Under the pieces are notes generated by a model that did no database searches, had not been told where the DNA came from, and saw only the letters and a program-made list of their open reading frames with translations. From an uncultured Nitrospiraceae bacterium (GTDB taxonomy: Bacteria > Nitrospirota > Nitrospiria > Nitrospirales > Nitrospiraceae): a stretch of DNA of 64,000 nucleotides. The translations under genes and the position numbers were made by a program. Shown one piece after another: positions 4,496 through 57,890 of this stretch. The stretch covers positions 192,001-256,000 of the forward strand of contig CAVPLT010000007.1 of assembly GCA_963706325.1 (NCBI GenBank). Reading direction: 5' to 3'. The stretch's first letter is position 1. The number at the start of each line of letters is the position of its first letter.

Positions 4496-4511
4496 CTGTA
4501 AAAAGTGACAG
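4496..4511 (-). promoter_or_regulatory. lux-box-like palindrome (1 mismatch) upstream of the 3245-4321 gene
   Basis: CTGTAAAAAGTGACAG; minus-strand TATCAT (4473-4468) starts about 30.5 bp from the box centre. Confidence 0.6.
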
Positions 4512-4700
4512 GTATTTGCTACAGAGGTATTGTTGCGTGCAATTCGATGATGACTACGGATGACTACTATTATGCGCCCATGTCACCGGAATTGTTTCTA
4601 CACACTGAAGTTGATGGCGCCGGCAGCCGAACCGATGATTTGCCAAGACTCGGATGAACCCATAACGGTCCATCGCTACTGAGCGCGCCTCCTTTTACCC

Positions 4701-4716
4701 CTGTCACTTTTGACAG
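4701..4716 (+). promoter_or_regulatory. lux-box-like palindrome (perfect) upstream of the GH13 gene
   Basis: CTGTCACTTTTGACAG; TGgTATGTA with the hexamer at 4740, 31.5 bp from the centre. Confidence 0.7.
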
Positions 4717-5048
4717 TAGGCGGAATGCTTGCCCAGTGGTATGTATCAACCGCCACGCTATGACACTCTTGATACATCGCGGCTACACCACTTGATAGAG
4801 GATGATGAACGAAAAAATGGCTCCAAAGCTAGCCCGGAATTTTCCGATCACACTCATGTGGAAGCTGCCCGCATCCGACGTTGCCAAGGTTCTACGCGCT
4901 ACCCGGCAGGGGCAGATGATGGGAATGGCACCTGAGTGAAGGAGGCCACTTCTGCCACCCGTGACTCATAAGTTGCTTATTTCACAGCCATAGGGCTTTC
5001 GCTCATCTGCGGCAAACTGGACGCCTTTCAGACTGCGGGAGGAAGATT

Positions 5049-6539
5049 ATGAAGTCCATGACCTCGTCGGTACATCCTGTGATCTATCAGATCAACACTC
5101 GAGTCTGGCTCACCGAATTATCCAAGTCTCTCGGCCGGCCAGCATCACTGGACGACATTCCGGATGCTGAACTCGACCGGCTGGTGAGGATGGGCTTCGA
5201 GTGGGTTTGGTTCCTGAGCGTGTGGCAGACGGGTGAGGTGGGCAAGCGAGTCTCCCGCGTCAATCCTGAATGGCGAAGAGAGTTTCAGGAAACCCTGCCG
5301 GATTTGCGCGAGGAGGATATTGCCGGATCTGGATTTGCCATTACCGACTACACCGTCCATTCAGAGCTGGGAGGCGATTCGGCGCTGGCGCGGCTCCGCG
5401 AACGCCTCCGCAAACGAGGTCTCAAGCTCTTGCTCGACTTCGTTCCCAATCACACGGGAGTCGATCACCCATGGGTGGAAAAGCACCCTGAGTATTACAT
5501 TCGTGGCACCGAACAGGATCTGGAGAATGCTCCACACAACTATACGTGGGTGAGGCGCAAAGCCGGCGACTCGATCTTCGCCTATGGGCGCGATCCGTAT
5601 TTTTCAGGCTGGCCCGATACACTCCAGCTCAATTACAGTACCTCCTCCCTGCAGGAGGCAATGATCGGAGAATTGCTCAAGATCGCCGGACAATGTGACG
5701 GCATACGCTGCGACATGGCCATGCTCATCTTACCCGATGTCTTCGAAAGAACATGGGGGCTTAAAGCGGAGCTGTTCTGGCCAAAGGCTACCGAACGAGT
5801 TCGCAAACAATCTCCAAACTTCCTGTTCATGGCTGAGGTCTATTGGGATCTCGAATGGACGTTACAGCAGCAGGGATTCGATTACACCTACGACAAACGC
5901 TTGTATGACCGGCTGCGCGAAGGCCATGCCAGGCCGGTCCGCGACCATTTGCGTGCCGACCCTGACTATCAATGCAAGATGGCCCGATTCTTGGAAAACC
6001 ACGATGAACCTCGATCCGCCGCGACGTTTTCACCCGGCATGCATGAGGCGGCGGCGGTGATCACATTTTTGTCTCAAGGGCTGCGTTTTTTCCATCAAGG
6101 ACAGTTTGAAGGGAGACGGAAACGCATATCGCCACATCTGGTCAGAGCGCCACTGGAAACGTCCGATAACACCCTCCGTCTCTTTTATGATGATCTCCTA
6201 GGGGTGCTCCGGCGACCGGTTGTTCGAGACGGCCGGTGGCAATTACTCGAATGTAAACCGGCTTGGGAAGGCAATTGGACATCGGATTGCTTCCTGGCTT
6301 TTGCGTGGCAAGGACGACACCCAGAACAGCTGCTCATAGCAGTCAACTACGCCGGCAATCAGAGCCAGTGTCGCATTCCTCTTCCTTTCTCCGATCTCAC
6401 GGGCCGCACGGTGCGATTCCAAGACCTGATGTCCGCCGCCTGCTATGAGCATCATGGAGATGGTCTCCAGTCACATGGGCTCTACCTCGATATGCCAGCC
6501 TGGGGATATCACGTCTTTGAGGTGAGCATGGCCAAGTAA
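5049..6539 (+). CDS. Alpha-amylase family glycoside hydrolase (GH13)
   Basis: GH13 motifs LDFVPNH, DGIRCDMA, AEVYW and FLENHDEPR. Confidence 0.92.
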   Translation: MKSMTSSVHPVIYQINTRVWLTELSKSLGRPASLDDIPDAELDRLVRMGFEWVWFLSVWQTGEVGKRVSRVNPEWRREFQETLPDLREEDIAGSGFAITDYTVHSELGGDSALARLRERLRKRGLKLLLDFVPNHTGVDHPWVEKHPEYYIRGTEQDLENAPHNYTWVRRKAGDSIFAYGRDPYFSGWPDTLQLNYSTSSLQEAMIGELLKIAGQCDGIRCDMAMLILPDVFERTWGLKAELFWPKATERVRKQSPNFLFMAEVYWDLEWTLQQQGFDYTYDKRLYDRLREGHARPVRDHLRADPDYQCKMARFLENHDEPRSAATFSPGMHEAAAVITFLSQGLRFFHQGQFEGRRKRISPHLVRAPLETSDNTLRLFYDDLLGVLRRPVVRDGRWQLLECKPAWEGNWTSDCFLAFAWQGRHPEQLLIAVNYAGNQSQCRIPLPFSDLTGRTVRFQDLMSAACYEHHGDGLQSHGLYLDMPAWGYHVFEVSMAK

Positions 6540-11378: not shown

Positions 11379-12098
11379 CTACTTCATTAACTTGTCTGCC
11401 GCATTCCTCAGTTCTGTGGATTTCGGATTGCTAACGCTCTGCTTGGCGATAATATCTGTCGGTCTCACGGCTTTGCCGTAGTAGGCACGATTGGACTCAT
11501 CCGATACGGCAATCATGGAACCGTCCGCTGAAATTCCGGCAAAGGCTCCCTTTTTTTTGGCATAGGCGACGAGGTCCCCTGCAATTCCTTTTGCGGACGT
11601 GCCTTCCCCGGTCGGTCCCACCGCTACGCTGACATCACCACCGAGTTTGAAATCACTGCGATAGAACTCTTCCAAGCCTTTCTGATTCCTGACCGCAAAG
11701 ACCATCTCCGATATGTCGCCTCCGATTTGCAGGCCGAAGCTGGCGGAGCCGATGGTATAGAACACGGGTTCGGACCATTTCTTGGTCCTTTCGTCGCGGA
11801 CAATCAGTACGCCGCTGCCGCCGGCGCCGCCGAACACGAGCGCGCCCCGTAGAAATTGCGGCACGATGAAAAGGCCTTTCGCCTCACTCTTCAACTCCCG
11901 GATGGGATTCCCGACGTTTGGATCAGCCGCGAAGGCGTCCAGCGTCATCTTGGCTTTTTCCAGAAGCTGCTGCTGTTCTATCCCCTCGGCTGCCCTGATC
12001 GGCGTGAGACCGACCAGCGTCATCGTCCCGGACAATCCCGCGACCATGAACGCCAGTCGCGGGGTGATAAAAAAAGAGCTCGACAGTATAGAAGTCAT
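11379..12098 (-). CDS. Lipid-binding SYLF (Ysc84) domain protein
   Basis: FGGAGGSGVL, WSEPVF, SFGLQIG, KGAFAGIS...N.AYYG. Confidence 0.92.
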   Translation of the reverse strand: MTSILSSSFFITPRLAFMVAGLSGTMTLVGLTPIRAAEGIEQQQLLEKAKMTLDAFAADPNVGNPIRELKSEAKGLFIVPQFLRGALVFGGAGGSGVLIVRDERTKKWSEPVFYTIGSASFGLQIGGDISEMVFAVRNQKGLEEFYRSDFKLGGDVSVAVGPTGEGTSAKGIAGDLVAYAKKKGAFAGISADGSMIAVSDESNRAYYGKAVRPTDIIAKQSVSNPKSTELRNAADKLMK

Positions 12099-13687: not shown

Positions 13688-15172
13688 CTACGATCCGCTT
13701 CTCGCTGTTTGACCAACCGGTGGAATAGGCGCGTTGCCGGCAGGCTTCGCGGGAAGCCACCCCCCGCCCAGCGCTTTGTAGAGTTGAACCATGGAGACCA
13801 GTTGCCCGCGTCGGGTCTTGGCGAGGGACAATTCCGCATCGAACAGGTTGCGTTGCGCGGTCAGGACATCGAGGTAATTGGCCCTCCCTCCCTGATAACG
13901 CTGGGTCGCGAAGTTTGATGCAGATTGTAACGCTTTGACTTGCTGCTCCTGAGCGTCCCGTCTTTCCCTCGTCTTTTGCACCGCAATCAGCCCGTCCTCC
14001 ACTTCCTTGAACGCGACCAGAATCGCTTTTTCATACTGTGCTAAGGCTTGCCGGGCTTGCGCTTCGGACGCCTGCACTTGATAGCCCAGGGCGGTCGCGT
14101 TGAGAAGCGGGCCGGTTAAGGTCGCGGATGCCCCTATCGTCGCAAAAGGCCCCGCTGCCAAGGAGTTGAACTGGAACCCGGCTCCGCCGGCCGCGCCGGT
14201 GAGGGAGAGCTGCGGAAAGCGTTGGGCCTGGGCGACTCCGATCGTGGCCGTCGCTGCAGCGAATTGCTGTTCGGCCTGGAGAATATCGGGGCGGCGTTGG
14301 AGTAACGCCGAAGGAAGACCGGGCGGTACATCCGGTGGCATGGGTTGCTCGATGAGAGCAAGACCGCGGGTAATCGCGCTCGGTCTGCGTCCCAGCAATA
14401 GACTGAGTTGGTTCTCTTTCTGAGTGACCTGTTGCTCCAGTTCGGCGAGTTGCGCGGCGGTTCCGGCCCGTTCTGCCTCGAAGCGATCCAGATCGAGTTT
14501 CGGTATATCCCCGTGATCGAAGCGCAGCCGAGAAATCCTGACGCTCTCTTCCCACGATTTCAGGGTCCGCTTGGCGATGTCGACCTGCAGATCGAGCGCG
14601 CGAAGATCGAAATAAGCTTCGGCGACGTTTCCAACCAATCCAATGATCACTGCCCGCTGGTTCTCTTCTTGGGACAACAGTTGGGCTCGCGACGCCTCGA
14701 TGGAGCGACGGATACGGCCCCAGAGATCAAGCTCCCATTTCAGGCCGACGACACCATATTCCCTTGAAAAGTCTGTCCCTCCTGACGATCCCACGGCGGG
14801 GCTTGGGATGATCGCGCCTGATCCAAAGGCCAACGCTTGATTATTCGTATTGTGATATGTCGAGGCCTCGGCCGTATAGCCGAGCGAGGGCGCCAGGTCG
14901 AATTTGGAGATCAGGAGCTGGGCGCGAAACTGTTCGACACTGGCCACGGCCACTCGCAGGTCTTGGTTTTCTTCGAGCGCGATGCGGATCAATCCCTGAA
15001 GTTCTTGGTCTTTAAGGAGGTCCCACCAGGGCAGATTGGCGAGGGATTCCGCGGTTGCTGGTGTCAGGCGCCAGGCGTCCCCGGCCGGCGTCTCCGGTTT
15101 CTTGTAGTCCGGGCCCATCATGCAGGAGCTGAGCGACAGGACGGACACCGTGGCGAGCATCCAGCGATACAT
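13688..15172 (-). CDS. RND efflux outer-membrane lipoprotein (NodT/OprM family)
   Basis: Lipobox LSSC, WWDLLKD, WELDLWGR, LLQRRPDI, LYKALGGGW. Confidence 0.95.
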   Translation of the reverse strand: MYRWMLATVSVLSLSSCMMGPDYKKPETPAGDAWRLTPATAESLANLPWWDLLKDQELQGLIRIALEENQDLRVAVASVEQFRAQLLISKFDLAPSLGYTAEASTYHNTNNQALAFGSGAIIPSPAVGSSGGTDFSREYGVVGLKWELDLWGRIRRSIEASRAQLLSQEENQRAVIIGLVGNVAEAYFDLRALDLQVDIAKRTLKSWEESVRISRLRFDHGDIPKLDLDRFEAERAGTAAQLAELEQQVTQKENQLSLLLGRRPSAITRGLALIEQPMPPDVPPGLPSALLQRRPDILQAEQQFAAATATIGVAQAQRFPQLSLTGAAGGAGFQFNSLAAGPFATIGASATLTGPLLNATALGYQVQASEAQARQALAQYEKAILVAFKEVEDGLIAVQKTRERRDAQEQQVKALQSASNFATQRYQGGRANYLDVLTAQRNLFDAELSLAKTRRGQLVSMVQLYKALGGGWLPAKPAGNAPIPPVGQTARSGS

Positions 15173-15173
15173 G

Positions 15174-18100
15174 TCAGTGAGCTCCTTGTGTCCGCGCATG
15201 CGCGGGAATCTCGGTCGGATCAGAAGCCGGGAGATGCGCCTCTTCATTTCCTGAAGGGATGGGCGCCTTGGGCCTTGGACGATCATGACGATGCACCAGG
15301 GTTTCCACAAAGGTGTAGGCAACCGGAATCAAGAAGATCGCAATAACACTCGCCGCCAGCATCCCACCTAGGACGGCAATGCCGAGCAGGATCCTTCCTT
15401 GCGCGCCTGCTCCGGAAGACAGGACCAGCGGAACAACCCCGAGGATAAATGCGAATGACGTCATCAGAATGGGCCGCAGCCGCAAGCGGGCGGCAATGAG
15501 AGCTGCCTCCGCGACGCCCTTGCCCTTTTCGTATTCCACCTTCGCGAACTCCACGATGAGGATCGCATTCTTGGCCGAAAGTCCGATCAGCATGACGAGA
15601 CCGATTTGGGTAAAGACGTTATTCTCCAGACCAAGGACCCAGAGTGCGCCGAATGCGCCGAACACCGCAATCGGTGTGCAGAGTAAGACGCTGAACGGCA
15701 ATGCCCAACTCTCATACTGCGCTGCGAGGATGAGAAAGACGAACAGCAGCGAGAAGCCGAAGATCACACTCGCCGGTACCCCTTCCGCCGCAGCCTTCTC
15801 CTGAAAAGACATTCCGGAATAGTCATAGCCCATTTCGCGCGGCATCGTCTCGGCGAAGACTTCTTCGAGCGCCGCCATGGCCTGCCCGGAACTGTAGCCG
15901 GGCTTCGCGGAGACAAACAACTGGGCGGAGCGGTAGGCATTAAAGCGCATCGTGAATTCCGGGCCCGACATGGGCTCCATCGACACCAGCGCCGAGAGAG
16001 GTACCATATCGTTGGACGCGTTGCGGACATAAAACTGACCCACGTTGTCCGCACGGGTGCGAAAATCGCCGTCGGCCTGCACGTAGACCTGCCATACCCG
16101 CCCAAAGCGGTTGAAGTAGTTCACCATGACTCCGCCCATGAACGTCTGCAGCGTCTGATACACGTCTCCGAGGTTCACTCCCTGTTTCAGTACCTTATCC
16201 CGGTCCACCTTTGCGGAAACCTGGGGAACGCTGGGGATGAAGGTCGTGTTGACGGCTGCGATTTCTGGACGTTGACGGGCGGCCTCGATGAACTTCTGGG
16301 TATGCTCAGCCAGAAAGGCGACGTTCTTGCCGGCGCGGTCTTCGAGAACGAACGACACGCCCCCCGAGGTGCCGACGCCGGGAATCGCCGGCGGAGGGAA
16401 AAGGAACGCTTGAGCTTCAGGTAACTCAGCCAATTGCTGGTTGACGTTCTTGAAGATCGCCATGATTTTCTCATCAGGGTGCTTCCGTTCGTCCCATGGA
16501 GCCAGCGTCACGAAGAAAAACGTGTTGTAGGTGGTATTCACGGTGCTCAGGAGACTGAATCCGATGATGGCGGACGCATATTGGACACCGGGTGTGCGGC
16601 TCAGGATCTCTTCAATTCTTTTGGTGACCTCATCGGTCCTCTGGAGGGACGAGGCGGCCGGCAGTTGGACGTTCAAATATAGGTACCCTTGGTCCTCCAT
16701 CGGCAAGAACCCGTTCGGGAGCCGGCTGCCGAAGAATCCAGCGGCCACTGCAAACAAAACCAGGAGCATCATCGAACGCCCGCCTTTGCGAATCAAGTAT
16801 CCGCAGATTCCGACATATCCGTCGGTCGCCCGATCGAACCATCGGTTGAACCAGCCGAAGAAGAGACCCAGGGGACCTCTGGCTGGTTTCTTCGGGCGCA
16901 ACAGGAGGCTCGAGAGGGCGGGGCTGAGCGTGAGCGCGTTGAACGCTGAGATCACCACGGAGAGCGCAATCGTGATGGCGAACTGCTGGTACAGCCGTCC
17001 GGTAATCCCAGGGATGAAGGCGGTCGGTACAAAGACCGCGGCCAGGATAAGCGCGATTGCGATCACCGGTCCTGAGACCTCTTCCATCGCTTTGAAGGTG
17101 GCATCCTTCGGTGTCATGCCATGCTCAATGTGGTGTTCGACCGCCTCAACCACCACAATCGCGTCGTCCACGACCAACCCGATGGCTAACACCAGGCCTA
17201 ACAACGAGAGGGTATTGATCGAGAAGCCGAGCATGGGGAAGAGCATGAAGGTGCCGACAAGAGAGACCGGCACGGCCAGCAGGGGAATCAAGGTGGCACG
17301 CCAGCCCTGCAGGAAGATGAAGACGACCAGAATCACGAGCACCAACGCTTCCCCTAGGGTATGGACTATCTCATTGATCCCTTCCCTGACCGACAGTGTC
17401 GTGTCAAGCGAAACCACGTAGTCCAGGTCCGCCGGGAACCGAGCCTTCATCTCCTCCATCAGTTTCTTGGCCTGGTCCATGGTGTTGATTGCGTTCGATC
17501 CCGGAAGCTGGTACACCGCCACGATGGCCGCAGGTTTACCATTGAGCCGGCCCTTGTTCCCATAGCTTTGGGAACCCAACTCGATCCGGGCCACATCCTT
17601 GAGCCGCACGATCGACCCATCGCTATTGGCTCGGACCACGATCTGTTCAAATTCTTCCGGGCTGACCAGCCGGCCCTGCGCTCTGACGGTATAGGTAAAT
17701 TCCTGCCCCGTGGGAACGGGTTCCGCGCCGATTTGCCCTGCCGGGTTCACGGTATTCTGTTTCTTGATCGCCTCGAGAATCTCGGGGATCGTAATTTCGA
17801 GTTTGGCCAACCTGTCCGGGCGCACCCAGAACCGCATGGCGTATTGACCGGCGCCGAAGATCGTCACCTGTCCGATACCCGGCACACGGCTCATGGGATC
17901 ATTGATATTGATGTAGGCGTAATTGGTCAACCACAGGTCGTTGTAGGTCCCATTTGGCGAGGTGAGTGAAAAGAGAGCTAGAGGGCTGGTCGTCGATTTT
18001 TTGATATTGACGCCGTAGTTCCTGACTTCCTGCGGCAGTTGCGACTCGGCCTGCAGGTAGCGCATCTGCGTCAGAATTTGATCGTCATTCGGCTTGGTGG

Positions 18101-18389
18101 TGATGTCGAAGTTGACGCGCAACGTCATCGCTCCGTTGTTCGCATTCACGGAGTACATGTAGAGCATGTTATCCACCCCGCTCACCTGCTGCTCGATGGG
18201 GGTGGCAACGGACTGTTCGAGGGTCACCGCATCCGCGCCGACATAAGTGGCTGTCAGCATGATTTCAGGCGGAGCGATGTTAGGAAACTGCGCGATCGGG
18301 AGTTGAATCATCGCGACGACACCGAGAATCGTCATGATGATCGAGATGACCATCGCAACGATTGGGCGGTTGATGAAGAATTTTGCCAT
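15174..18389 (-). CDS. RND efflux permease (HAE1/AcrB family)
   Basis: 1071 aa; MAKFFINRPI, GLVVDDAIVVVE, AKNAILIVEFA, RLRPILMTSFAF. Confidence 0.97.
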   Translation of the reverse strand: MAKFFINRPIVAMVISIIMTILGVVAMIQLPIAQFPNIAPPEIMLTATYVGADAVTLEQSVATPIEQQVSGVDNMLYMYSVNANNGAMTLRVNFDITTKPNDDQILTQMRYLQAESQLPQEVRNYGVNIKKSTTSPLALFSLTSPNGTYNDLWLTNYAYININDPMSRVPGIGQVTIFGAGQYAMRFWVRPDRLAKLEITIPEILEAIKKQNTVNPAGQIGAEPVPTGQEFTYTVRAQGRLVSPEEFEQIVVRANSDGSIVRLKDVARIELGSQSYGNKGRLNGKPAAIVAVYQLPGSNAINTMDQAKKLMEEMKARFPADLDYVVSLDTTLSVREGINEIVHTLGEALVLVILVVFIFLQGWRATLIPLLAVPVSLVGTFMLFPMLGFSINTLSLLGLVLAIGLVVDDAIVVVEAVEHHIEHGMTPKDATFKAMEEVSGPVIAIALILAAVFVPTAFIPGITGRLYQQFAITIALSVVISAFNALTLSPALSSLLLRPKKPARGPLGLFFGWFNRWFDRATDGYVGICGYLIRKGGRSMMLLVLFAVAAGFFGSRLPNGFLPMEDQGYLYLNVQLPAASSLQRTDEVTKRIEEILSRTPGVQYASAIIGFSLLSTVNTTYNTFFFVTLAPWDERKHPDEKIMAIFKNVNQQLAELPEAQAFLFPPPAIPGVGTSGGVSFVLEDRAGKNVAFLAEHTQKFIEAARQRPEIAAVNTTFIPSVPQVSAKVDRDKVLKQGVNLGDVYQTLQTFMGGVMVNYFNRFGRVWQVYVQADGDFRTRADNVGQFYVRNASNDMVPLSALVSMEPMSGPEFTMRFNAYRSAQLFVSAKPGYSSGQAMAALEEVFAETMPREMGYDYSGMSFQEKAAAEGVPASVIFGFSLLFVFLILAAQYESWALPFSVLLCTPIAVFGAFGALWVLGLENNVFTQIGLVMLIGLSAKNAILIVEFAKVEYEKGKGVAEAALIAARLRLRPILMTSFAFILGVVPLVLSSGAGAQGRILLGIAVLGGMLAASVIAIFLIPVAYTFVETLVHRHDRPRPKAPIPSGNEEAHLPASDPTEIPAHARTQGAH

Positions 18390-19601: not shown

Positions 19602-19779
19602 TCCCCTGCGGTAGGCTATCTGAGGAGTGGCAGTGTGACCACGCGGTAGCATGCTTCGTCTCCATGGACCATGGTATTCGAACGGCTTAATGCTGACGAT
19701 CATCGCTGGGCAAAAACCGTGAGTGCTGAGGCGCGCACGATGCGTCATCTTTATTACTAGGAGGGATGCGGAAGAGCAA

Positions 19780-19795
19780 CTGTCAAAAGATACAG
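19780..19795 (-). promoter_or_regulatory. lux-box-like palindrome (2 mismatches) upstream of the RND operon
   Basis: CTGTCAAAAGATACAG; minus-strand TAATAA at 19756-19751, 31.5 bp from the centre. Confidence 0.55.
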
Positions 19796-21197: not shown

Positions 21198-21280
21198 GAG
21201 GTTCCTCCCTGGAATTAGATGCATGGTGCATGTGCAGAAAGCATCGACGGCAGTATCACCGTTAGTTCATTCAAAATGAA

Positions 21281-21296
21281 CTGTCAAAAGTAACAG
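21281..21296 (-). promoter_or_regulatory. lux-box-like palindrome (1 mismatch) upstream of the SYLF gene
   Basis: CTGTCAAAAGTAACAG; minus-strand GATACT at 21257-21252, 31.5 bp from the centre. Confidence 0.65.
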
Positions 21297-21660: not shown

Positions 21661-21676
21661 CTGTCAGTTTTGAAAG
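21661..21676. promoter_or_regulatory. lux-box-like palindrome (1 mismatch) next to a glycine-zipper remnant
   Basis: CTGTCAGTTTTGAAAG; no clear -10 element at the usual spacing. Confidence 0.45.
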
Positions 21677-24716: not shown

Positions 24717-25265
24717 CGAATCACCTCGGCTCCAGACTGACCGGTTTGCTTCACCTTGGTCGAATAAAAGATTTTGCCCGTTGCAGGATCGTTTGTCTGG
24801 TAGTAGTTGCTACAGCCAGCGGCCAGGAGTGCTAAGCCGAGTCCGCACCTCGTCATCGCCGTCATGTAGATAGTTGCGCATAATATTCTCTTTCATTTCA
24901 TTGAGGTTGTGCTGTCTTCGATCCGTCGAGTGCAGACCTACCGGATTTGGCGCTTAATATACAAGGGGAAAAATTGCGCAGCAAGCTGCGCCCTCGCCTC
25001 GACTCGAATTTGTTTTAGAGCCGGAGGTAGCGCGATCTGCGTTGCGGTCAGCATCCCGCCGATCGTCTTAATCGGATGACCGCTTCAGGGTCACCGCCGC
25101 CTCTAGCGATCGCCTCGTCGAGAATGTCACATCGACGGATGATTTTCTTGCAGCGATGGAAGGGGTCTTTATGGTACATGAAGGCGGCTTTAGAGAACCT
25201 ACAGCTTGAAAGGGGTGGCTATGATGCGGTGTGAAGGTCTCAGCTGGTTGATGCGCAGAGAACAC

Positions 25266-27607: not shown

Positions 27608-28060
27608 CTACTTCTGCCTAGCATGAGGTCCCATGCCGGAGGCCTGTAGGCTACTGTGATGGCTAGCGTCGTTCGTGATGTCTTCGATTACTTGAGGCAA
27701 GCTGGAGGCGCGGTGCTTCGGAACGAATGCCGACGCCCCTGCCGCCCGCATCGCATTATGTATCATGCGGTCATCCATGGCGGACAAACCAATCACGGAG
27801 ACCTGTGGAAGCCTGGCTTTGATGCGTCGAGTGGCTTCAATCCCGTTCAGCCCAGGCATCTGCACATCCATAACAATAATATCGGGACAGAGAGCGATGG
27901 CCATCTCAACGGCGGAGAGCCCATCGACGGCCTCTCCGACAAGGTGGAAGGACGGAAATGTCTTGAGCATCCGCTGTACGATCCTCCGGAAGAGATCGGA
28001 ATCGTCCACGAGTAAAATGCGCACCGGTGGCACCGTTTCTAGCAAGACCTCGGCTTCCAT
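27608..28060 (-). CDS. Single-domain response regulator (receiver only, NarL-type REC)
   Basis: ILLVDD, PDIIVMDVQMPGLNGIEATR, GASAFVPK; no HTH. AAAGGA RBS before the ATG at 28060. Confidence 0.88.
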   Translation of the reverse strand: MEAEVLLETVPPVRILLVDDSDLFRRIVQRMLKTFPSFHLVGEAVDGLSAVEMAIALCPDIIVMDVQMPGLNGIEATRRIKARLPQVSVIGLSAMDDRMIHNAMRAAGASAFVPKHRASSLPQVIEDITNDASHHSSLQASGMGPHARQK

Positions 28061-28338
28061 GGTTGTATCCTTTCGTTCAAGGTTGTATTGGTACGTAAGA
28101 GTCAAGGCCGGGTCTGGCGAGAACATTGACCCAGACCACACCAAATCGCATTGGAGGCAGCCCATGCCGCCGAACTCCTCACATCCGAACTTATGGTCGA
28201 CCACGAAGAATAAGAATAAGTTGTCGTATCGAACCGGTCTTCCAGGAAGAGATCACCGGGCATCAACGACCTCCATAAATTTGTGCACCTGGAGTCGCCG
28301 GACCCCACGCGACACCTTATCGGAGACAATTGGAAAGT

Positions 28339-29342: not shown

Positions 29343-29723
29343 CTACGGTGTCTCCTCTCTCGCCTGGAAATGTCGAAGGCATTTCTCCCGTAAGAGATCG
29401 GTATCCGCAGGCATCGAAATATAGTCCCGTGCGCCTTTTCGAATAGTTTCTTCCAAGCGCTCGTGGGTTGAAAAGGAAGACAATACAATGACAGGGGTCT
29501 CGACACGCAGCTTCTGAAGGCTATCCAGCACGGCCATTCCGTTATGGTTCTGCATGTCAAAATTCAAAATGACGCCGTCGAATTTGGATGTCTTCGCCCA
29601 TTGATTTCCTAGGATTGTGACAGCATGTACCCAGACAACGTTGAACCCTATCGTATTCAGCCGAGTGCGCAGCACTCCCTGCTCCTCGAAATCATCACCG
29701 ATCATCAGAATGAGACCGCGCAT
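29343..29723 (-). CDS. Degenerate single-domain response regulator receiver
   Basis: ILMIGDD, DGVILNFDMQNHNG (phospho-Asp position is Asn), KGARDYISMP (conserved Lys is Met); AGGAGG RBS. Confidence 0.75.
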   Translation of the reverse strand: MRGLILMIGDDFEEQGVLRTRLNTIGFNVVWVHAVTILGNQWAKTSKFDGVILNFDMQNHNGMAVLDSLQKLRVETPVIVLSSFSTHERLEETIRKGARDYISMPADTDLLREKCLRHFQAREETP

Positions 29724-30095: not shown

Positions 30096-30111
30096 CTGTC
30101 AATTCTGACAG
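30096..30111 (+). promoter_or_regulatory. lux-box-like palindrome (perfect) upstream of the 30279-34461 gene run
   Basis: acCTGTCAATTCTGACAGta; TATTCT at 30135, 31.5 bp from the centre. Confidence 0.75.
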
Positions 30112-35066: not shown

Positions 35067-35082
35067 CTGTCAATTGTGACAG
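35067..35082 (+). promoter_or_regulatory. lux-box-like palindrome (perfect) upstream of the DcaP/sda/pta/ack/pfl run
   Basis: acCTGTCAATTGTGACAGtt; TAACAT at 35105, 30.5 bp from the centre. Confidence 0.72.
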
Positions 35083-39248: not shown

Positions 39249-39276
39249 ATCGAGCCGTGCGACCGATGAAGAATAG

Positions 39277-41507: not shown

Positions 41508-41517
41508 AGGTAGGACG

Positions 41518-42695: not shown

Positions 42696-42712
42696 CGAAA
42701 GGAGAGAGGGCG

Positions 42713-44979
42713 ATGGCTACATCAGTTCCGGCAAAACTCGAATCCAAGGGCGCCAAGGCAACTCGGGCTGGGAGGGGTTCAATCTAGGGCTCTGGCAAAA
42801 GGAAATCAACGTTCGCAACTTTATCCAGCAGAATTACAAACCGTATGAAGGGAATCACTCCTTTCTCGCCCCAGCAACCGACCGTACCAAGAGGATCTGG
42901 AAAATCCTCACGGACCTTTTTGTAGAAGAACGTAAAAAGGGTGTTCTGGATGTATCCCAGATTCCCAGCTCCATCACTGCACACCGTCCAGGGTACATCG
43001 ATCGTGATAATGAAGTCATCGTTGGTCTGCAAACCGAGGCGCCCCTCAAGCGCGCAATCATGCCGAATGGCGGCTTCCGCATGGTGGTCAATGCGCTCAA
43101 AACGTACGGGTACGAACCAGAGCCACATCTGGTCGAGACTTTTACCAAATACCGAAAGACTCATAACGAGGCCGTGTTCGATGCGTATACGGCAGCCGTC
43201 AAGCTGTGTCGCAGTTCGCATATCCTGACTGGACTCCCCGACGCGTACGGTCGGGGTCGAATCATCGGCGACTACCGGCGCGTCGCCCTTTACGGTGTCG
43301 CGCGTCTGATCGAGCGCAAGCAGGAGGAGAAACGCAGCATCGATGACATGATGTCGACTGACGAGATCATTCGCGACCGCGAAGAACTCAGTGAACAGAT
43401 TCGCGCGCTCGAGGAACTGCAGAAAATGGCGGCCGCTTACGGATTCGATATTTCCATTCCGGCTCGCACGTCGCGCGAGGCTGTGCAGTGGCTCTACTTC
43501 GCATACTTGGCCGCGGTGAAAGAGCAAAACGGCGCGGCGATGTCCTTGGGACGGACCTCAACGTTTCTGGACATCTATTTCGAGCGTGACCTCGCAACAG
43601 GCGCGATCACCGAACAACAGGCGCAGGAAATCATCGATGACTTCGTCATCAAACTGCGCATTGTCCGTTTTTTGCGCACGCCGGAATACGATGAACTATT
43701 CGCGGGCGACCCAACGTGGGTCACCGAATCGATTGCCGGTATGGGAGATGATGGTCGGTCGCTCGTCACCAAGACGAGCTTTCGGTATCTACAGACGCTC
43801 TACAATCTCGGTCCGGCGCCGGAACCAAATCTGACGATATGGTATTCCCCGCGACTGCCCGATGATTTTCGTAGTTTCGCGGCAAAGGTAGCGATCGATA
43901 CGAGTTCAATTCAATTCGAAAACGACGAGATCATGCGAAGTACCTGGGGAGATGATGGTGCCATCGCGTGCTGTGTCTCGCCGATGCTGGTCGGCAAGCA
44001 AATGCAGTTTTTCGGGGCTCGAGCCAACATGGCAAAGTGTTTTTTGTACGCGATCAATGGCGGTCGAGATGAACTCACCGGGAAGCAGGTGGGTCCGGCG
44101 ACCGAGCCCGTCAAGGGAGAGTATCTCGATATCGAGGACGTGATAGATCGCTTCGAAGCGACGATGGACTGGCTCGCCGGTGTCTATGTCAACGCCATGA
44201 ATATCATCCACTACATGCACGACAAATATGCCTATGAGCGGATTGAAATGGCGCTTCACGATTATGCGCCGTTGCGAACCATGGCGTTTGGCATGGCGGG
44301 TATGTCCGTGGTTGCCGACAGCCTCTCTGCTATCCGTTATGCGAAGGTCCGCGTGGTCCGCGATCAGACAGGTCTCATTACCGACTATCAAACCGAAGGC
44401 GAGTTTCCTCAGTTTGGGAACAACGACAACCGCGTCGATCAGCTCGCGACCTGGATCGTGAGCACGTTCATGAAGAAACTGAGGAAATATCCGACATACC
44501 GACAGGCACTGCACACGCAATCGATCCTGACGATCACGTCAAATGTCGTCTATGGCAAGAACACCGGCAACACGCCCGATGGGAGGCGACAGGGACAGCC
44601 GTTCGCTCCCGGCGCCAATCCAATGCATGGACGGGATAAGCATGGCGTTCATGCGTCGGCTGCATCGGTCGCCAAAATTCCCTACCGGGACGCCGCCGAC
44701 GGCATTTCACTCACGACATCGTTGGTGCCGCAGGGCCTGGGAAGAGTGGAGGAGGATCGGATCAAGAATCTGCGGGGCATGCTTGACGCGTTTTTCGGCT
44801 CGACGGGCTATCACATGAACGTCAATGTATTGAACCGTGAAACCCTGCTTGACGCCATGGACCATCCCGAGAAGTATCCAAGTTTGACGATCCGGGTCTC
44901 GGGCTATGCCGTAAACTTTGTGCGCTTGTCCCGGGAGCAACAATTGGATGTCATCAATCGCACCTTCCACGGGTCGTGA
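42713..44979 (+). CDS. pflB: Formate C-acetyltransferase (pyruvate formate-lyase), probable 5' frameshift
   Basis: [22 protein letters not shown] active-site Cys pair, glycyl-radical IRVSGYAV. The RBS-linked ATG at 42713 is out of frame with the main ORF (42658-44979). Confidence 0.93.
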
Positions 44980-45063
44980 CGGACGCGCTAATCAGCTTTA
45001 GAGGGGATAAACGAGAACTGGGGCTCTTGCTTCACAAACCGCCGTTGAAATAGGAGACGGTCT

Positions 45064-45909
45064 ATGCCTCCTGGTGAGACACATGAGTCTGGGTCGCTCG
45101 AGGCAAACAGCCCGTTCGAGCTTCGGGTGGACAAAGGCAGTCATGTCCCCGAGTCGACTATCAAACAAGCGCTCGAGAGCGGAGATATCGGATTCATCCA
45201 CTCATTTACCACGGGATCGGCTGTCGATGGACCGGGAATGCGGGTCGTAGCATGGCTGTCGGGATGCCAGTTCCGGTGCCTGTACTGCCACAACCCTGAC
45301 ACGTGGAGCCTAAGTAACGGCATGCCTGTGCCGTTGGCACGCGCGATCGAGGAGCTTCGCAAATATCGTCACGGGCTGAAGGTGATGTCCGGCGGGTTCA
45401 CCATCAGTGGTGGCGAGCCACTCATGCAGGATCGGTTTGTCGTCAAGTTATTCACCGCTACGCATGAAATGGGGATCCACACCGCGTTGGACACCAACGG
45501 TTTTCTCGGCGATCGCCTCAGCGACGGCGAGTTGGAAAAGATCAACCTCGTGCTGCTCGATATCAAAACCTGGGACGCCCAGCGACACCGACACCTGACC
45601 GGAAAGGATGTCGGCCCGACCATCGATTTCGCGCGCCGGCTGGCTGCCCGCAAACGGCCATGTTGGCTTCGTTTCGTCCTGGTGCCGGCATTAACCGACG
45701 ACCCGCAGGACATTTCGCGAATTGCCAAGTTCGCGGCTGGGCTGGGAAATATTGAACGCGTGGATGTACTGCCTTTTCATCAGTTGGGCCAATTCAAATG
45801 GAAAGAACTGGGTCTTGATTACACTCTGGAAAATACAGCGCCCCCGTCCCATGAACTGGTTCAACGCGTGTGCGCTCAATTCGCGGCGGAAGGCCTGAAG
45901 GTATACTGA
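45064..45909 (+). CDS. pflA: Pyruvate formate-lyase activating enzyme (radical SAM)
   Basis: VDGPG, GCQFRCLYCHNPDTW, SGGEP, LDTNG, LPFHQLG..KW. Confidence 0.95.
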   Translation: MPPGETHESGSLEANSPFELRVDKGSHVPESTIKQALESGDIGFIHSFTTGSAVDGPGMRVVAWLSGCQFRCLYCHNPDTWSLSNGMPVPLARAIEELRKYRHGLKVMSGGFTISGGEPLMQDRFVVKLFTATHEMGIHTALDTNGFLGDRLSDGELEKINLVLLDIKTWDAQRHRHLTGKDVGPTIDFARRLAARKRPCWLRFVLVPALTDDPQDISRIAKFAAGLGNIERVDVLPFHQLGQFKWKELGLDYTLENTAPPSHELVQRVCAQFAAEGLKVY

Positions 45910-46189: not shown

Positions 46190-46205
46190 CTGTCAAATCT
46201 GACAG
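46190..46205 (+). promoter_or_regulatory. lux-box-like palindrome (perfect) upstream of the GH63 gene run
   Basis: acCTGTCAAATCTGACAGta; TGcTACCTA with the hexamer at 46229, 31.5 bp from the centre. Confidence 0.72.
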
Positions 46206-46295
46206 TATCCGACGTCACCTCTCCATGCTACCTAATGACCGGATACACTTGGTCTACTTTTGCGTGAGAACGCAATGACGAAGGAGGTTCGGGGC

Positions 46296-49028
<2,733 letters not shown>

Positions 49029-49494: not shown

Positions 49495-50955
49495 GTGAGA
49501 ATGACGAGGGACAGTGCTCAGGGTTTCGTGACTCGATGTTCTGTCCGCATCCCAACCATCGGAAAGCTTTTCTATCTTTCCATCATTCTCTTGTGCGTCG
49601 GATGTCGTGCAACCCCTGTCTTCTCTGTTCCAACCACGAATACACCCGCCACGTGCATCACACCGGCCGGCGATAAGAAACTACTCGTCGGTCTCGCGGT
49701 GTCGGGCGGAGGTAGTCGCGCAGCACTATTTGCGGCAGGAGCTTTCGAGGCGTTGGGCCGAATCGCCATTGGTCCTCAGAAGCAATCGTTGCTCGAGCAG
49801 GTCTCCTACATATCAAGCGTATCGGGCGGCAGCATGGCCTCGTCCTATTTTGCGCTCAAGAAACCGTCGCGGGACGTTTCAGTTCTGAATCAAACCGGAG
49901 AGATCAGCGCTGATTATCAACGGTTTTTTAAGAGTTTCAAAGAAAGCATGGGCAAAGACTATGAGGGGTTGTTGCTGTGGCGACAACTCGCCTATTTCCG
50001 TTGGTTCAACCCCTCTTGGACCGCCCAATCTCTTGCGGAAGGCCTCAGTGAAAATTATTTGGGCGAGGCCAAGTTTACAGACCTGGCTCAGCGGGAGACA
50101 CGAGGAGATAGCCCACGCCTTCTCATCAATACCACACTTTACAATGATGGACGGCGGTTTCTTTTGAGTACGCTTCCGCGGGAGAATTCTCAGTTCGACC
50201 TGATAGGCGACCTCGAGCATTTTCCGAAGATCATGTCGCTGGAGAAGCAGGCTCTCGACCTGATGCGCGTGAAGTGGGACAGTCTCATTTCCATGGTCCC
50301 GGAGGATTTAGGGATCAATGCCTGTCCGGTCCGAATTGCCGGCGCGGTCGCCGCCTCCATGTCTTTCCCGCCGATTATCGGCCCCATTACGCTTGGTGAC
50401 GCCAAGAGAGAACGCTATTGGCACATCGGAGATGGGGGATTGTCCGATAACACCGGCGGGGAATCATTGCTGATGGTGTTTTTGAAACAACTCCAGGAAG
50501 ATCCTAACCGGCGGGCCATCATGATACTCATCGATAGCTCGTTCCCCTTTTCCGTGGGGGGAGAAGTACTAGACCATCGGAAAGAAGGTTTTAGCCTGCT
50601 TAATTACGACTACTCGAGAATTCCTTCCATTATGGAAGAACGATCCCTGGCCTATCGAGGCTTGTTTCTTTCCATAGGGCAAAGCATAGGACTGCTGCCG
50701 GGCCCGGAGCGAATTCGAGTGATCCGCTTGCGACACACCGATGCTGTATGGAATGACAATCTGAATGACCTCCCGGACTCATGCAAAAAACAGCGAATCG
50801 ACTGGAAGTCCCCGAAGGACGTCGGCAAGCACCTTTCGGGAATCGTGACCCGATTGTGGCTCGAGTCGACCTGCGATCAGGATTTGATTCTCGCCGCCGC
50901 TGCCAAAGTGGTCGCTGCAAGTGAGAGCAATATCAGGACCTTCCTGGAGAGATGA
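49495..50955 (+). CDS. Patatin-like phospholipase family lipoprotein
   Basis: SGGGSRAA oxyanion loop, SSVSGGS nucleophile, DGGLSDN; CVGC lipobox. Confidence 0.88.
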   Translation: MRMTRDSAQGFVTRCSVRIPTIGKLFYLSIILLCVGCRATPVFSVPTTNTPATCITPAGDKKLLVGLAVSGGGSRAALFAAGAFEALGRIAIGPQKQSLLEQVSYISSVSGGSMASSYFALKKPSRDVSVLNQTGEISADYQRFFKSFKESMGKDYEGLLLWRQLAYFRWFNPSWTAQSLAEGLSENYLGEAKFTDLAQRETRGDSPRLLINTTLYNDGRRFLLSTLPRENSQFDLIGDLEHFPKIMSLEKQALDLMRVKWDSLISMVPEDLGINACPVRIAGAVAASMSFPPIIGPITLGDAKRERYWHIGDGGLSDNTGGESLLMVFLKQLQEDPNRRAIMILIDSSFPFSVGGEVLDHRKEGFSLLNYDYSRIPSIMEERSLAYRGLFLSIGQSIGLLPGPERIRVIRLRHTDAVWNDNLNDLPDSCKKQRIDWKSPKDVGKHLSGIVTRLWLESTCDQDLILAAAAKVVAASESNIRTFLER

Positions 50956-55619: not shown

Positions 55620-55992
55620 GAGTATTTGAACTACGCGCGGTGTATACCATAGCAAAAAGCGGCTTCACGTGGGACTGTTCGTCCATTCAGCGTGGGCCTA
55701 ACAAGTTGGTCTAAGACGGCGTGCTGATTCGAAAGGGATCGGCGGACTGTATGCATCGTTTTATTCAAGCGGCGCAGAATGCGCACATCTTGTAGCTTTT
55801 TCACTATCGCACGGCAGGTGAATCGCCGCACAGTTTTTTCTCTCCCGTTCTTTCGCAGGACCTATCGCGACCTACTTTGATTGGAGGAAGGTATTCCCCT
55901 TCGAGCAGTAAACGATGTCGTGAAACTCCATCACCTGGACCCACGCGCTGCCATTACGGTAGCACAAAGACGTTGCCAGAAAATCTACGCGT

Positions 55993-56277
55993 ATGCTGGA
56001 GGCCGCCATGTCATTAGAAGAATTCATCGGTTTCTTGGCTGGATTCGGAACAACCTTTGCCTCGTTGCCGGATTTGATTGCGATGCTTCGGCGGCGGTCC
56101 TGCGAAGGCATGAATCCCACCATGGCCACGATCATGGGCACCTTCCAGATCGTATGGGTCTATTACGGGTTCTTGATCCATTCCAACCCGGTGATCGTCT
56201 GGAATATGATCGCCGTCGTGATCAATTCCCTCATGGTCGGCGCCTATTTCTATTTTGCATGTTCAAAGCGGGAATAA
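55993..56277 (+). CDS. SemiSWEET/PQ-loop family small transporter
   Basis: 3 TM; GFLAGFGTTFASLPD, WVYYG...PVIVWN. Confidence 0.85.
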   Translation: MLEAAMSLEEFIGFLAGFGTTFASLPDLIAMLRRRSCEGMNPTMATIMGTFQIVWVYYGFLIHSNPVIVWNMIAVVINSLMVGAYFYFACSKRE

Positions 56278-57832
56278 TAGCTCATGTGGATCTATGACAC
56301 CGTTCGTTTGGCAAGGTAGCGCTCGGCTACCGACGTATCTTTTCTGCATAATTGTCTTTTCTTTGATCTTGGCCGGCACAGGCCTTGCCGATGAAACTCC
56401 TTCTCACGCAAGGGCAATGCAGGGTCCCCCTTCACCCTTCGAGCCGTTGCCCGTCAATGAGCCGGTCGGGGGCAGGCCGGAATCGGGCACATTCCCGGGC
56501 ATCTCTCGTTGGCAGAATGACGTGCTGTCCTGGGAGACCGGCGCGGGCCGCAGCTATGTCTTACCGGCCGTAGAAATCCTTGCCTACGAGTTCCTTCTGA
56601 ATCGATTCAATCGCAATTTTGTCGAGCCGAAGGAGGAGTACCAGACAAATGGCGACACGATTTGGAAGAACCTCACTGATTCGAAGTGGGTCATTGACAA
56701 TGACCAGTTTAAGGTCAACCAGTTCCTTCACCCCTATGGTGGCAGCGTCTATTATGGTATTGCGCGATCGGCCGGTTTGAATTTTTGGGAATCTTTTTTG
56801 TACAGCGTCGCCGGAAGTTTTGTATGGGAGATTGCCGGGGAAACAACGAATCCTTCTATAAATGACATGATTTCGACACCTTTCGGCGGTACCTTCCTGG
56901 GCGAGCCTTTCTTTCGAATGGCGAGTTTGTTGCTCGAGAATAGCGACGGAGAGCCAGGCTTTTGGCGAGAACTCGGCGCAGCCGTGATCTCACCTCCAAC
57001 CGGATTCAATCGTCTGGTATTCGGCAACAAATTTGACACCCTTTTTCCGAGTCATAAGCCGGCCACGTTCATGCGCTTGCAGGTGGGAGGAACCCTCTCT
57101 TCCAGTAGCCGCAATGTTTCGTCTGGCGTCGAAGAGAACGGCGCCGTGGCAGATTTCACATTTACTTATGGTTTGCCTGGGCAGCCGAACTATTCGTATC
57201 AGCGCCCGTTTGATTATTTCGACTTTCAGATGCGGGCTGTTACGGCCAACTTTTTGGAAAGCGTCACCAGCCGGGGGCTCCTCTTAGGCACGACGTACGG
57301 GTCCGGTGAATCGACGCGGGGAATATGGGGACTCTACGGAAGTTACGACTACATTTCTCCCCAGGTGTTTCGAGTTTCCAGCACCGCCCTGTCGGTGGGA
57401 ACCACGTGGCAGACGTGGCTCTCGCGCACCGTGGCACTTCAGGGCACCGCTCTCGCCGGGACCGGCTACGGAGCGGCTGGTAGTATCGAGGCAACGGGGC
57501 TACGAGATTATCATTATGGGATGACGCCTCAAGGCTTACTCTCGCTTCGCCTAATCTTCGGCGATCGAGTGATGGTCGACCTTTCCGGACGTGAATATTA
57601 TGTCAGCGACGTGCTGTCCCCCGAGCAGGGCGGATGGGAAAATATTGTGCGCGGTGAGACGTCGGTGACGCTACGGGTCGCCGACCGCCACGGGTTGGCG
57701 CTACGATATCTGTTCTCGCATCGGGACGCCCACTATCCCGATATCGATTATCGGGGCCAGACGGTGGGAACAATTAGTCTCATGTACGTACTCCTCGGAG
57801 AGACCGGATTCGGTGCGGTGGACTGGCGTTAG
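56255..57832 (+). CDS. DUF3943 domain outer-membrane protein (start probably about 56294)
   Basis: W..D.D.F.VNQF.HPY.G..YY..ARS.G, WE..GE...PSIND...T..GG..LGE. Confidence 0.82.
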   Translation: MHVQSGNNSSCGSMTPFVWQGSARLPTYLFCIIVFSLILAGTGLADETPSHARAMQGPPSPFEPLPVNEPVGGRPESGTFPGISRWQNDVLSWETGAGRSYVLPAVEILAYEFLLNRFNRNFVEPKEEYQTNGDTIWKNLTDSKWVIDNDQFKVNQFLHPYGGSVYYGIARSAGLNFWESFLYSVAGSFVWEIAGETTNPSINDMISTPFGGTFLGEPFFRMASLLLENSDGEPGFWRELGAAVISPPTGFNRLVFGNKFDTLFPSHKPATFMRLQVGGTLSSSSRNVSSGVEENGAVADFTFTYGLPGQPNYSYQRPFDYFDFQMRAVTANFLESVTSRGLLLGTTYGSGESTRGIWGLYGSYDYISPQVFRVSSTALSVGTTWQTWLSRTVALQGTALAGTGYGAAGSIEATGLRDYHYGMTPQGLLSLRLIFGDRVMVDLSGREYYVSDVLSPEQGGWENIVRGETSVTLRVADRHGLALRYLFSHRDAHYPDIDYRGQTVGTISLMYVLLGETGFGAVDWR

Positions 57833-57874
57833 TATTCCGGCCAGCCTTTTTGTATCATTCCCCTTTTTAAGGCC

Positions 57875-57890
57875 CTGTCATTTCAGACGG
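57875..57890. promoter_or_regulatory. Degenerate lux-box-like palindrome (2 mismatches)
   Basis: CTGTCATTTCAGACGG, intergenic, upstream of the EEP gene. Confidence 0.35.

Follow-up and report, generated by a model that had tools for sequence, protein, structure and literature searches.

A conserved palindromic promoter box on a 124-kb genomic island of a Nitrospiraceae bacterium and its candidate response regulator

Introduction

Which protein reads the short palindrome CTGTCA-N4-TGACAG that recurs between the genes of an uncultured soil Nitrospiraceae bacterium, and does this element mark a quorum-sensing regulon? The question was raised by a 64,000-nt stretch of DNA (NCBI GenBank assembly GCA_963706325.1, contig CAVPLT010000007.1, positions 192001-256000, referred to here as the window, or G000:C7:192001-256000, where G000 is the genome studied, of 4.24 Mb in 8 contigs and 96% complete), in which a preliminary description made from the sequence alone had noticed lux-box-like copies of this palindrome, named here the box, and had attributed them to a LuxR-type activator. 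Next to nothing is known of how Nitrospira-like nitrite oxidisers control their genes, since only a few strains can be kept in pure culture, and the present analysis supplies an operator word with its promoter layout, a candidate regulator pair, and a list of targets whose conservation extends to 43 of the 371 family genomes surveyed.

The regulon that we find is real and conserved, has apparently not been described before and works by a mechanism of a familiar kind; the quorum-sensing label has to be dropped for it. Most likely, to judge from the sequence comparisons given below, the box is a promoter operator bound by a NarL/FixJ-type response regulator encoded on the same genomic island, which would activate some twenty promoters from a site that overlaps the -35 region. 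A literature search over listings and text passages returned no description of this box, regulator or island. The box words combined with response regulator retrieved only unrelated matches and the paper on the afe-box of Acidithiobacillus (PMC3759942); Nitrospira combined with pyruvate formate-lyase (PFL), phosphoketolase, glycogen or anoxic retrieved, in the accessible text, nothing on such an island; and in the available sections of PMC12342949 the terms formate lyase, phosphoketolase, fermentation and glycogen are all without occurrence.

Distribution of the Box in the Genome

The window was scanned with the pattern CTGTCA-N4-TGACAG, and the chance level was taken from 100 dinucleotide-preserving shuffles. 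Four perfect boxes were found, while a perfect copy appeared in 0 of the 100 shuffles, and with up to two mismatches allowed there were 11 matches versus 2.0 expected and 6 in the richest shuffle. The nine copies listed in the preliminary description (four perfect, three with one mismatch and two with two mismatches; Table 1) were all reproduced exactly, in coordinates and mismatch counts alike, and the two additional two-mismatch matches, at 24394 (within a SYLF gene) and 59918, look like chance matches. In the whole genome, the box has 8 perfect and 17 one-mismatch copies, and six control patterns (reversed, half-sites swapped, and gaps of 2, 3, 5 or 6) gave no perfect copy and 5-8 one-mismatch copies each. 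By our own crude gene calls, which make 81% of the genome coding, all 8 perfect boxes and 11 of the 17 one-mismatch boxes are intergenic, so that the intergenic placement first noticed by eye in mostly coding DNA holds genome-wide for the perfect copies; the copy at 21661 falls in an open reading frame (ORF) of 122 aa that the codon model did not call a gene.

The copies are also unevenly placed along the genome, given that 6 of the 8 perfect ones sit in C7:132,000-256,000 and 16 of the 25 perfect and one-mismatch copies fall in C7:138-238 kb. The 20-kb flanks on either side of this region (C7:112001-132000 and C7:256001-276000) are collinear and separated by only 4-9 kb in four congeners without boxes (G001, G004, G007 and G009) and in the box-rich congener G118; therefore, G000 carries an insertion of about 124 kb, of which the window is the right half. 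The box is thus non-random, intergenic and concentrated on this insertion, called here the island. No tRNA gene was found in C7:100-300 kb, and none of the scanned genes of the island proved to be an integrase. The flanks of the island also hold stretches of 75-150 nt (L109:420-570 and 4795-4915; L110:8489-8617 and 11523-11630) with dozens of matches in congeners at 80-92% identity, which by their sequence are a dispersed repeat of the genus, similar to repetitive extragenic palindromes (REP) or to miniature inverted-repeat transposable elements (MITE).

Among the copies outside the island, three lie in an integrase-flanked stretch of contig C4 and one beside transposase and resolvase genes on contig C5, and box-promoter cassettes seem to be mobile. 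The C4 stretch (G000:C4:898600-904200; L082:1676-7179) has two phage-type integrase genes and a one-mismatch box before DUF4136 and SYLF genes that are paralogues of island genes, and the C5 copy is a perfect box at C5:59277.

Promoter Geometry

Read towards the nearer gene, the sites share the layout (A/C)C-CTGTCA-N4-TGACAG-T(A/T), and a TAnnnT-like hexamer comes 22-23 nt further on. The seven -10-like hexamers named earlier (Table 1) are indeed present at the computed coordinates, 22-23 nt past the box edge, which is 30.5-31.5 nt from the box centre. When TAnnnT was counted in both directions and at all offsets, that is, with no chosen orientation, the counts peaked at 22-23 nt, with 10 of the 20 sites of G000 and 12 of the 32 distinct sites of other genomes, over a background of about 0.5 per offset. 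Moreover, the asymmetric flank pair C..T is present in 44 of 64 distinct perfect boxes, and after orienting these 44 by their flanks alone, TAnnnT was found at 22/23 nt downstream in 17 and in the opposite direction in none. Column counts in the same 44 boxes give TA with 30 and 33 of 44, preceded by TG with 26 and 24 of 44, and hence the box is followed, 22-23 nt on, by an extended -10 element (TGnTAnnnT). No -35 hexamer at 17-bp spacing was found in these 44 boxes.

It follows from the -10 distance that the box occupies about -51 to -36, with its centre near -42/-43, in accordance with the class-II activator geometry (centre near -42.5, over the -35 region) of the preliminary description. 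As a side remark, at 30105-30110 and in other boxes a T-rich spacer turns the promoter-proximal half-site into TTGACA, a perfect -35 hexamer, which stands 24 nt from the -10 element, too far for sigma-70.

Conservation of the Box in the Family Nitrospiraceae

A survey of 371 Nitrospiraceae genomes gave a bimodal distribution of perfect boxes, with 3-16 copies in 43 genomes, 2 in 6, 1 in 47 and none in 275, and the reversed control pattern never exceeded one copy in any of them. We refer to the 43 genomes with 3-16 perfect boxes as box-rich and to the other 328 as box-poor. The box-rich genomes comprise 6 of 6 in genus g16, 4 of 4 in g38, 23 of 33 in g36 and 3 of 39 in the window's own genus, besides five in g37, one in g23 and one in g39, and the half-site sequence is constant over these seven genera.

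Orthologues of the target genes tend to keep the box: it was found upstream of 8 of 9 matches of the GH63 gene, 5 of 6 of the GH13 gene, 3 of 3 of the membrane fusion protein (MFP) gene of the resistance-nodulation-division (RND) pump, 2 of 2 of PPK2 and 1 of 1 of a sulfatase. In the case of the outer-membrane protein (OMP) gene, two of four other genomes have a perfect box 118-152 bp upstream of the orthologue, one of them with the same ATTC spacer, and the remaining two have a box about 1 kb upstream. That orthologous targets keep the box is, at the level of sequence, good evidence for a functional, selected regulon, and the regulon reading of the preliminary description is in this way sustained by the related genomes.

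The box-rich members of the window's genus do not seem to share a single island. The response regulator of G000, described in the next section, is 70% identical to that of genus g16 and only 44-45% identical to those of the box-rich congeners G113 and G118, and G118 retains the empty island site; separate acquisitions are therefore indicated.

The Two-Component Regulator That Tracks the Boxes

About 37 kb to the left of the window, the island encodes a soluble PAS-PAS_3-HisKA_3-HATPase_c histidine kinase and, overlapping it, the NarL/FixJ-type response regulator (Table 1). The stop codon of the G000 regulator coincides in part with a one-mismatch box, after which comes the gene of a single-domain receiver; next is a perfect box, before a Rieske operon. 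The coding sequence of this receiver (G000:C7:155471-155927; L080:3471-3927) is broken into two frames in G000 (ORFs 3471-3836 and 3733-3927), which is a frameshift or an assembly error, since the gene is intact in other genomes.

A search of the 371 genomes with the regulator as a single protein matched 22 at E<=1e-58, all with at least two boxes and 21 with at least four. A clade profile was then built from 21 box-adjacent regulators. We set its threshold with the help of G000, whose orthologue reaches 343 bits and whose paralogues reach 263 at most. This profile matches 39 genomes, 36 of them with at least three boxes, two with 2 and one with 1; in other words, the regulator clade is present in 36 of 43 box-rich and in 3 of 328 box-poor genomes. 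At the level of the loci, a box with at most one mismatch lies within about 2.5 kb of the regulator in 18 of 18 loci from 18 genomes, in at least 12 genomes it stands 30-60 bp after the regulator's stop codon and before a receiver gene, and the kinase is co-conserved in 14 of the 18 regulator loci.

The recognition helix of the regulator reads RTVAFHKY in 23 of 23 box-linked regulators, though overall identity drops to 44%, in contrast with seven G000 paralogues that carry T(V/I/A)E(F/T)H(K/R)x in its place. The phospho-acceptor pocket (D33, D76, T104 and K126) is invariant in 21 regulator orthologues. Against NCBIfam the best scores of the regulator were 134, 124 and 108 bits, for cut-offs of 242, 300 and 250, and so it has no curated equivalog there. 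A regulator clade with the helix RTVAFHKY, a PAS/HisKA_3 kinase and a box-driven receiver gene thus travel with the boxes. Regarding the kinase, its sensors are only PAS domains, without GAF, and with a weak FixL-like match (E 4e-7); its PAS_3 and catalytic parts are the common ones, and its N-terminal PAS part is found in close orthologues only. Four cysteines in the first PAS domain had suggested an Fe-S sensor, an assignment that we do not adopt, as only two of the cysteines are conserved in five full-length orthologues and distant orthologues do not have this part.

Several observations weigh against the proposal that this response regulator reads the box and drives such a regulon. The clade profile was made from regulators of box-rich genomes, and 21 of its 39 matches are the training genomes themselves; of the 18 matches outside the training set, 16 have at least three boxes, and the 325 box-poor genomes without a clade match are not a product of the training choice. 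Related genomes are not independent samples. Seven box-rich genomes have no regulator match by the clade profile, three of them 59-76% complete (G139, G144 and G147) and four 90-97% complete (G173, G233, G263 and G290). No box lies upstream of the kinase-regulator operon in G000, and the N-terminal sensor part of the kinase is not conserved over the clade, so that the clade need not respond to a single signal. In G000, as in genus g16, one island holds the regulator, the LuxR-like gene of the window and the boxes together, and their linkage there does not discriminate between the two candidate proteins. A reader of the LuxR type is chemically plausible, since the core of the box is that of the afe-box of a true LuxR responsive to acyl-homoserine lactones (AHLs), according to the available sections of PMC3759942. 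Finally, in the loci examined an upstream box was found for 0 of 4 matches of DUF4136 orthologues away from a locus edge, and PFL occurs in only 1 of 14 other genomes checked, which means that fermentation is not a core output.

Other Possible Readers of the Box

The foremost competing candidate is the LuxR-solo-like protein P0001, encoded at 28391-29221 in the middle of the box-rich window, which could bind the box, by itself or jointly with the response regulator, and couple the island to a small molecule other than an AHL. P0001 has a GerE helix-turn-helix (HTH). A profile of its 33 homologues aligns full-length with CviR (E 1.1e-13), and an AlphaFold model is confident over residues 40-240, so its fold is probably related to that of CviR. 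Its closest orthologues (61-79% identity) are in the box-rich islands of genus g16. The CviR site, presumably CTGNCCNNNNGGNCAG, would have the same 16-bp layout as the box. Nevertheless, the distribution of the P0001 family (E<=1e-40) does not follow that of the box: it occurs in 25 of the 371 genomes, 9 of 43 box-rich and 16 of 328 box-poor, so that 34 of the 43 box-rich genomes are without a homologue and 16 of the 25 genomes with one are box-poor. The genome G062 (the same record as G045) has five P0001 homologues, of up to 66% identity, with a recognition helix, RTVRMHLQRIKKKL, identical to that of P0001, and has 0 boxes in 3.3 Mb at 82% completeness. Furthermore, a P0001 homologue is encoded in 0 of the 18 regulator-centred box loci, and no box lies upstream of P0001's own gene. 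We conclude that P0001 is probably not the reader of the box and that its participation is unlikely, in spite of the fact that AfeR binds an afe-box with the same core (PMC3759942, available sections).

Two receiver genes flank the gene of P0001 (27608-29723), in an order that is conserved over its family (L035-L041 and L055), also in a box-free genome, and the LuxR-like protein may work with these flanking receivers instead of a small ligand. The motif GAAATG-N7-CATTTC near the LuxR genes was considered as a family-specific operator and was rejected, being within conserved receiver 3' ends and thus a coding feature.

A regulator of the CRP/FNR family, or another core-genome regulator, could be imagined as binding the TGTCA-N4-TGACA dyad in the manner of FNR at class-II sites centred at -41.5. 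The 5-N4-5 dyad and a centre at -42/-43 fit FNR-type sites, G000 has five CRP/FNR-family genes, and in E. coli FNR controls pfl, pta-ackA and serine dehydratase, all of them among the box targets of G000. This explanation nonetheless has no more than a modest probability, given that no CRP/FNR gene lies on the G000 island or within the box clusters of the five other box-rich genomes looked at, and that a core regulator fails to explain the all-or-none occurrence of boxes among congeners (3 of 39 in the genus).

We regard as very unlikely the classical AHL quorum-sensing regulon, in which a LuxI-made signal would enable a LuxR protein to activate lux-box promoters, as the preliminary description had proposed for the LuxR gene at 28391. 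The CT-N12-AG shape of the dyad and a centre near -42.5 agree with it, as does the identity of the box core with the afe-box, and AHL systems do exist in Nitrospira (available portions of PMC3759942 for the former and of PMC8553950 and PMC12342949 for the latter). Against it, a search for LuxI (Autoind_synth) was negative in G000, G118 and G074 and positive in G148 and G124, the HdtS and LuxM types having remained outside that search; no match to Autoind_bind (PF03472) above the cut-off was found in G000, G149 or G292, the only one in G000 being P0001 itself with 18.5 bits, below the cut-off of 23 bits; and canonical LuxR/LuxI pairs were found neither in G149 nor in G292, whereas those of G148 and G124 lie megabases away from the box clusters. 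The AHL-contact residues of these receptors are Y80, W84 and D97 in CviR, equivalent to Y53, W57 and D70 in TraR. In the sequence-profile alignment of the P0001 family, W84 is replaced by L or F and D97 by S, G, A or N in 33 of 33 members, with P98 kept. In addition, the box of NspR1, proven in Nitrospira, is different, ACCTGGCGGTTCCGCCAGGT (PMC8553950, available sections). With the contact Trp and Asp missing and no LuxI found, the proposed circuit is not supported, and it is the phyletic pattern of the P0001 family that we consider decisive against this LuxR. A factor other than LuxR at the box had been foreseen in the preliminary description as an outcome that refutes the quorum-sensing reading and leaves the regulon standing, and the response regulator that tracks the boxes agrees with it. 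The case is also a caution that a perfect lux-box look-alike beside a LuxR gene is insufficient to call quorum sensing.

That the repeat is a structural or mobile element (an RNA hairpin, REP or MITE) and not a protein operator is extremely improbable, for even if its 6-bp stem with a 4-nt loop could fold and the island has many internal paralogues, the flanks beyond 18-20 bp are unrelated, the one-mismatch variants break the pairing without a compensating change, the half-site does not vary over seven genera whereas a stem selected as RNA would be free to co-vary, and the boxes keep a fixed distance to a -10 element and lie upstream of genes.

Boxes and Genes of the Window and Cargo of the Island

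The features of the window, together with the kinase and the regulator, are collected in Table 1. One shared activator-type box fronts the barrel gene, the GH13 gene, the RND pump, the SYLF gene, the OMP/lipoprotein run, the porin-serine dehydratase-PFL run and the GH63 gene, as had been claimed. The run from porin to PFL activase downstream of the box at 35067 would form one transcript. Upstream of the receiver/LuxR cluster, two adjoining genes at 25206-27544 (377 and 366 aa) have no Pfam or NCBIfam match, and the second of them, of 366 aa, has homologues of 59-68% identity in four other box-rich loci.

Table 1. Boxes and genes of the window, in window coordinates, and the two-component genes of the island, in contig coordinates (C7). 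OEP, outer-membrane efflux protein; MFS, major facilitator superfamily.
Feature	Position	Strand	-10-like hexamer	Downstream gene or remark
Box, one mismatch (CTGTAAAAAGTGACAG)	4496..4511	-	TATCAT 4468-4473	Cys-rich outer-membrane barrel gene 3245-4321 (-)
Perfect box	4701..4716	+	TATGTA 4740-4745	GH13 alpha-amylase-family gene 5049-6539 (+)
Box, two mismatches	19780..19795	-	TAATAA 19751-19756	RND efflux operon
RND efflux operon	MFP 18450-19748; AcrB-type 15174-18389; OEP 13688-15322	-		
Box, one mismatch	21281..21296	-	GATACT 21252-21257	SYLF/Ysc84-domain gene 20481-21224 (-)
Copy, one mismatch	21661..21676	.	absent at the usual distance both ways	function doubtful
Receiver-domain gene	27608..28204	-		beside LuxR gene; without DNA-binding domain
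LuxR-solo-like gene P0001, 276 aa	28391..29221	+		GerE HTH at residues 201-255; divergent CviR-like N-terminal domain
Single-domain receiver gene	29343..29723	-		beside LuxR gene
Perfect box	30096..30111	+	TATTCT 30135-30140	OMP beta-barrel gene 30255-30971 and small envelope genes to 34461 (+)
Perfect box	35067..35082	+	TAACAT 35105-35110	porin 35771-37351 (+), then fermentation genes
Fermentation genes	37605-45909	+		in order: serine dehydratase, MFS, Pta, AckA, PFL, PFL activase
Perfect box	46190..46205	+	TACCTA 46229-46234	GH63/MGH-like hydrolase 46260-49028 and further genes (+)
Copy, two mismatches	57875..57890	.	clean -10 absent at 22-23 nt	membership uncertain
PAS-PAS_3-HisKA_3-HATPase_c kinase, soluble	C7:152843-154735	+		on the island, about 37 kb left of the window
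NarL/FixJ-type response regulator	C7:154677-155396	+		Response_reg 4.6e-22, GerE 3.6e-14

According to Pfam, the island has a large set of envelope genes, with many SYLF/Ysc84 and DUF4136 lipoproteins, OMP barrels, porins and the RND pump, besides glycine-zipper, BON, LEA_2, PLA1, patatin and AsmA-like proteins, and also an MscS channel and a universal stress protein. For respiration, there is a set of Rieske, multicopper oxidase-cytochrome c and cytochrome b genes, and for polyphosphate there are two PPK2 genes. Carbohydrate catabolism is represented by glycogen phosphorylase, isoamylase, GH13, two GH63 enzymes, phosphoglucose isomerase (PGI), class-I aldolase, phosphoketolase, transketolase and a fragment of glucose-6-phosphate dehydrogenase (G6PD), and fermentation by the serine dehydratase-MFS-Pta-AckA-PFL-PFL activase genes. 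Many of these genes are internally duplicated: the two PPK2 genes (C7:165014-165829 and C7:182972-183787) have identical Pfam scores, the GH63 gene at window 46260-49028 has a second copy at C7:173458-176250, window 49495-50955 pairs with C7:184774-186252, and there are two patatin genes, two DUF3943 genes and at least seven SYLF genes.

The fermentation module has a history of its own. Over 8.3 kb from serine dehydratase to PFL activase (window 37591-45909), it is 87% identical in DNA to a module of G089, which belongs to another genus (L111:8585-16903, G089:C8), with 93% identity between the PFL proteins, and it is absent from 13 other genomes checked, 7 of them congeners. This pattern suggests that the cassette moved recently by horizontal transfer among relatives of the nitrite oxidisers. 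In G089 a two-mismatch box stands before the module, with the expected flanks and a -10 element at 23 nt, and therefore cargo appears to have been exchanged and put under box promoters.

Proposed Mechanism and Significance

Putting these results together, we propose that the cytoplasmic PAS kinase would sense a redox, oxygen or energy-limitation cue, as the cargo of the island leads us to suppose, and would phosphorylate the response regulator, whose phosphorylated dimer would bind the dyad, recruit RNA polymerase and, placed at about -42.5, activate promoters of the extended -10 type. Feedback would come from the receiver gene that a box drives, perhaps as a phosphate sink. To judge by the same cargo, the output would be a survival programme made of envelope remodelling and the mobilisation of glycogen and polyphosphate, to which this strain may add the fermentation of serine and pyruvate to acetate and formate.

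More tentatively, it is conceivable that the whole is a self-contained, horizontally moving survival island, which would pass from one Nitrospiraceae genus to another as a unit made of the kinase, the regulator, the feedback receiver and twenty-odd promoters with a single operator word, and would gain cargo by means of box promoters, the 8.3-kb fermentation module being an example. If this were so, supposedly obligately aerobic nitrite oxidisers would obtain a switchable maintenance mode for anoxia or starvation, fed from glycogen and polyphosphate. The cargo, with its envelope genes, its phosphoketolase, its means of mobilising glycogen and polyphosphate, its additional Rieske/cytochrome b complex and, in this strain, PFL plus acetate kinase, hints at how soil nitrifiers may outlast periods with no oxygen or no substrate, and such survival bears on nitrification dynamics in wet soils.

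Comparison with Known Systems

The afe-box of Acidithiobacillus ferrooxidans is GCTGTCAA-NN-TTGACAGC, which contains CTGTCA-N4-TGACAG, so that the common core given in the preliminary description is confirmed; the afe-box forms the middle of a palindrome of 30 bp, and one target, afeI, is proven for it. The two systems share the identical dyad core, its overlap with the -35 region of a sigma-70 promoter and a reader with a GerE-family HTH (all according to the available sections of PMC3759942). They differ in that the island genome, by LuxI-family search, has neither LuxI nor a canonical autoinducer-binding LuxR, in that about 20 stand-alone boxes are gathered on one island, and in that the covarying protein is a response regulator.

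The NspR1 box of Nitrospira, in turn, has two or three targets and needs N-octanoyl homoserine lactone (C8-HSL), as far as the available parts of PMC8553950 go. NspR1/NspI come from the same bacterial family and likewise rely on a GerE-HTH activator, with a dyad of 20 bp whose ends resemble ACCTG...CAGGT (same source), but G000 is without NspI-type or NspR-type genes, and the sequence of its box is different.

Among two-component systems, DosR/DevR of Mycobacterium (DosS/DosT-DosR) offers a parallel in its NarL-type regulator, its HisKA_3 kinases, and a palindrome of 16-20 bp before many dispersed operons, and also in a cargo that resembles survival without growth, for which the island has its universal stress protein, PPK2 and reserve-catabolism genes. 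In contrast, the sensors of the island are PAS and not GAF-haem domains, much of its cargo consists of envelope proteins, and its control by hypoxia would be a reading of gene content only; the Dev box, as we take it to be, also differs in sequence from the island box.

The island system operates in the manner of the regulons of the NarL/FixJ family (the NarL 7-2-7 site, the FixJ, StyR and TodT boxes and the RcsB box), which likewise combine a receiver with a GerE HTH and an adjacent PAS HisKA_3 kinase, and place a palindrome of 16-20 bp near -42 of promoters without a -35 element. The island regulator, unlike these, has no curated equivalog and has its own box sequence and its own helix, RTVAFHKY, and its operator is spread over a horizontally acquired island of 124 kb.

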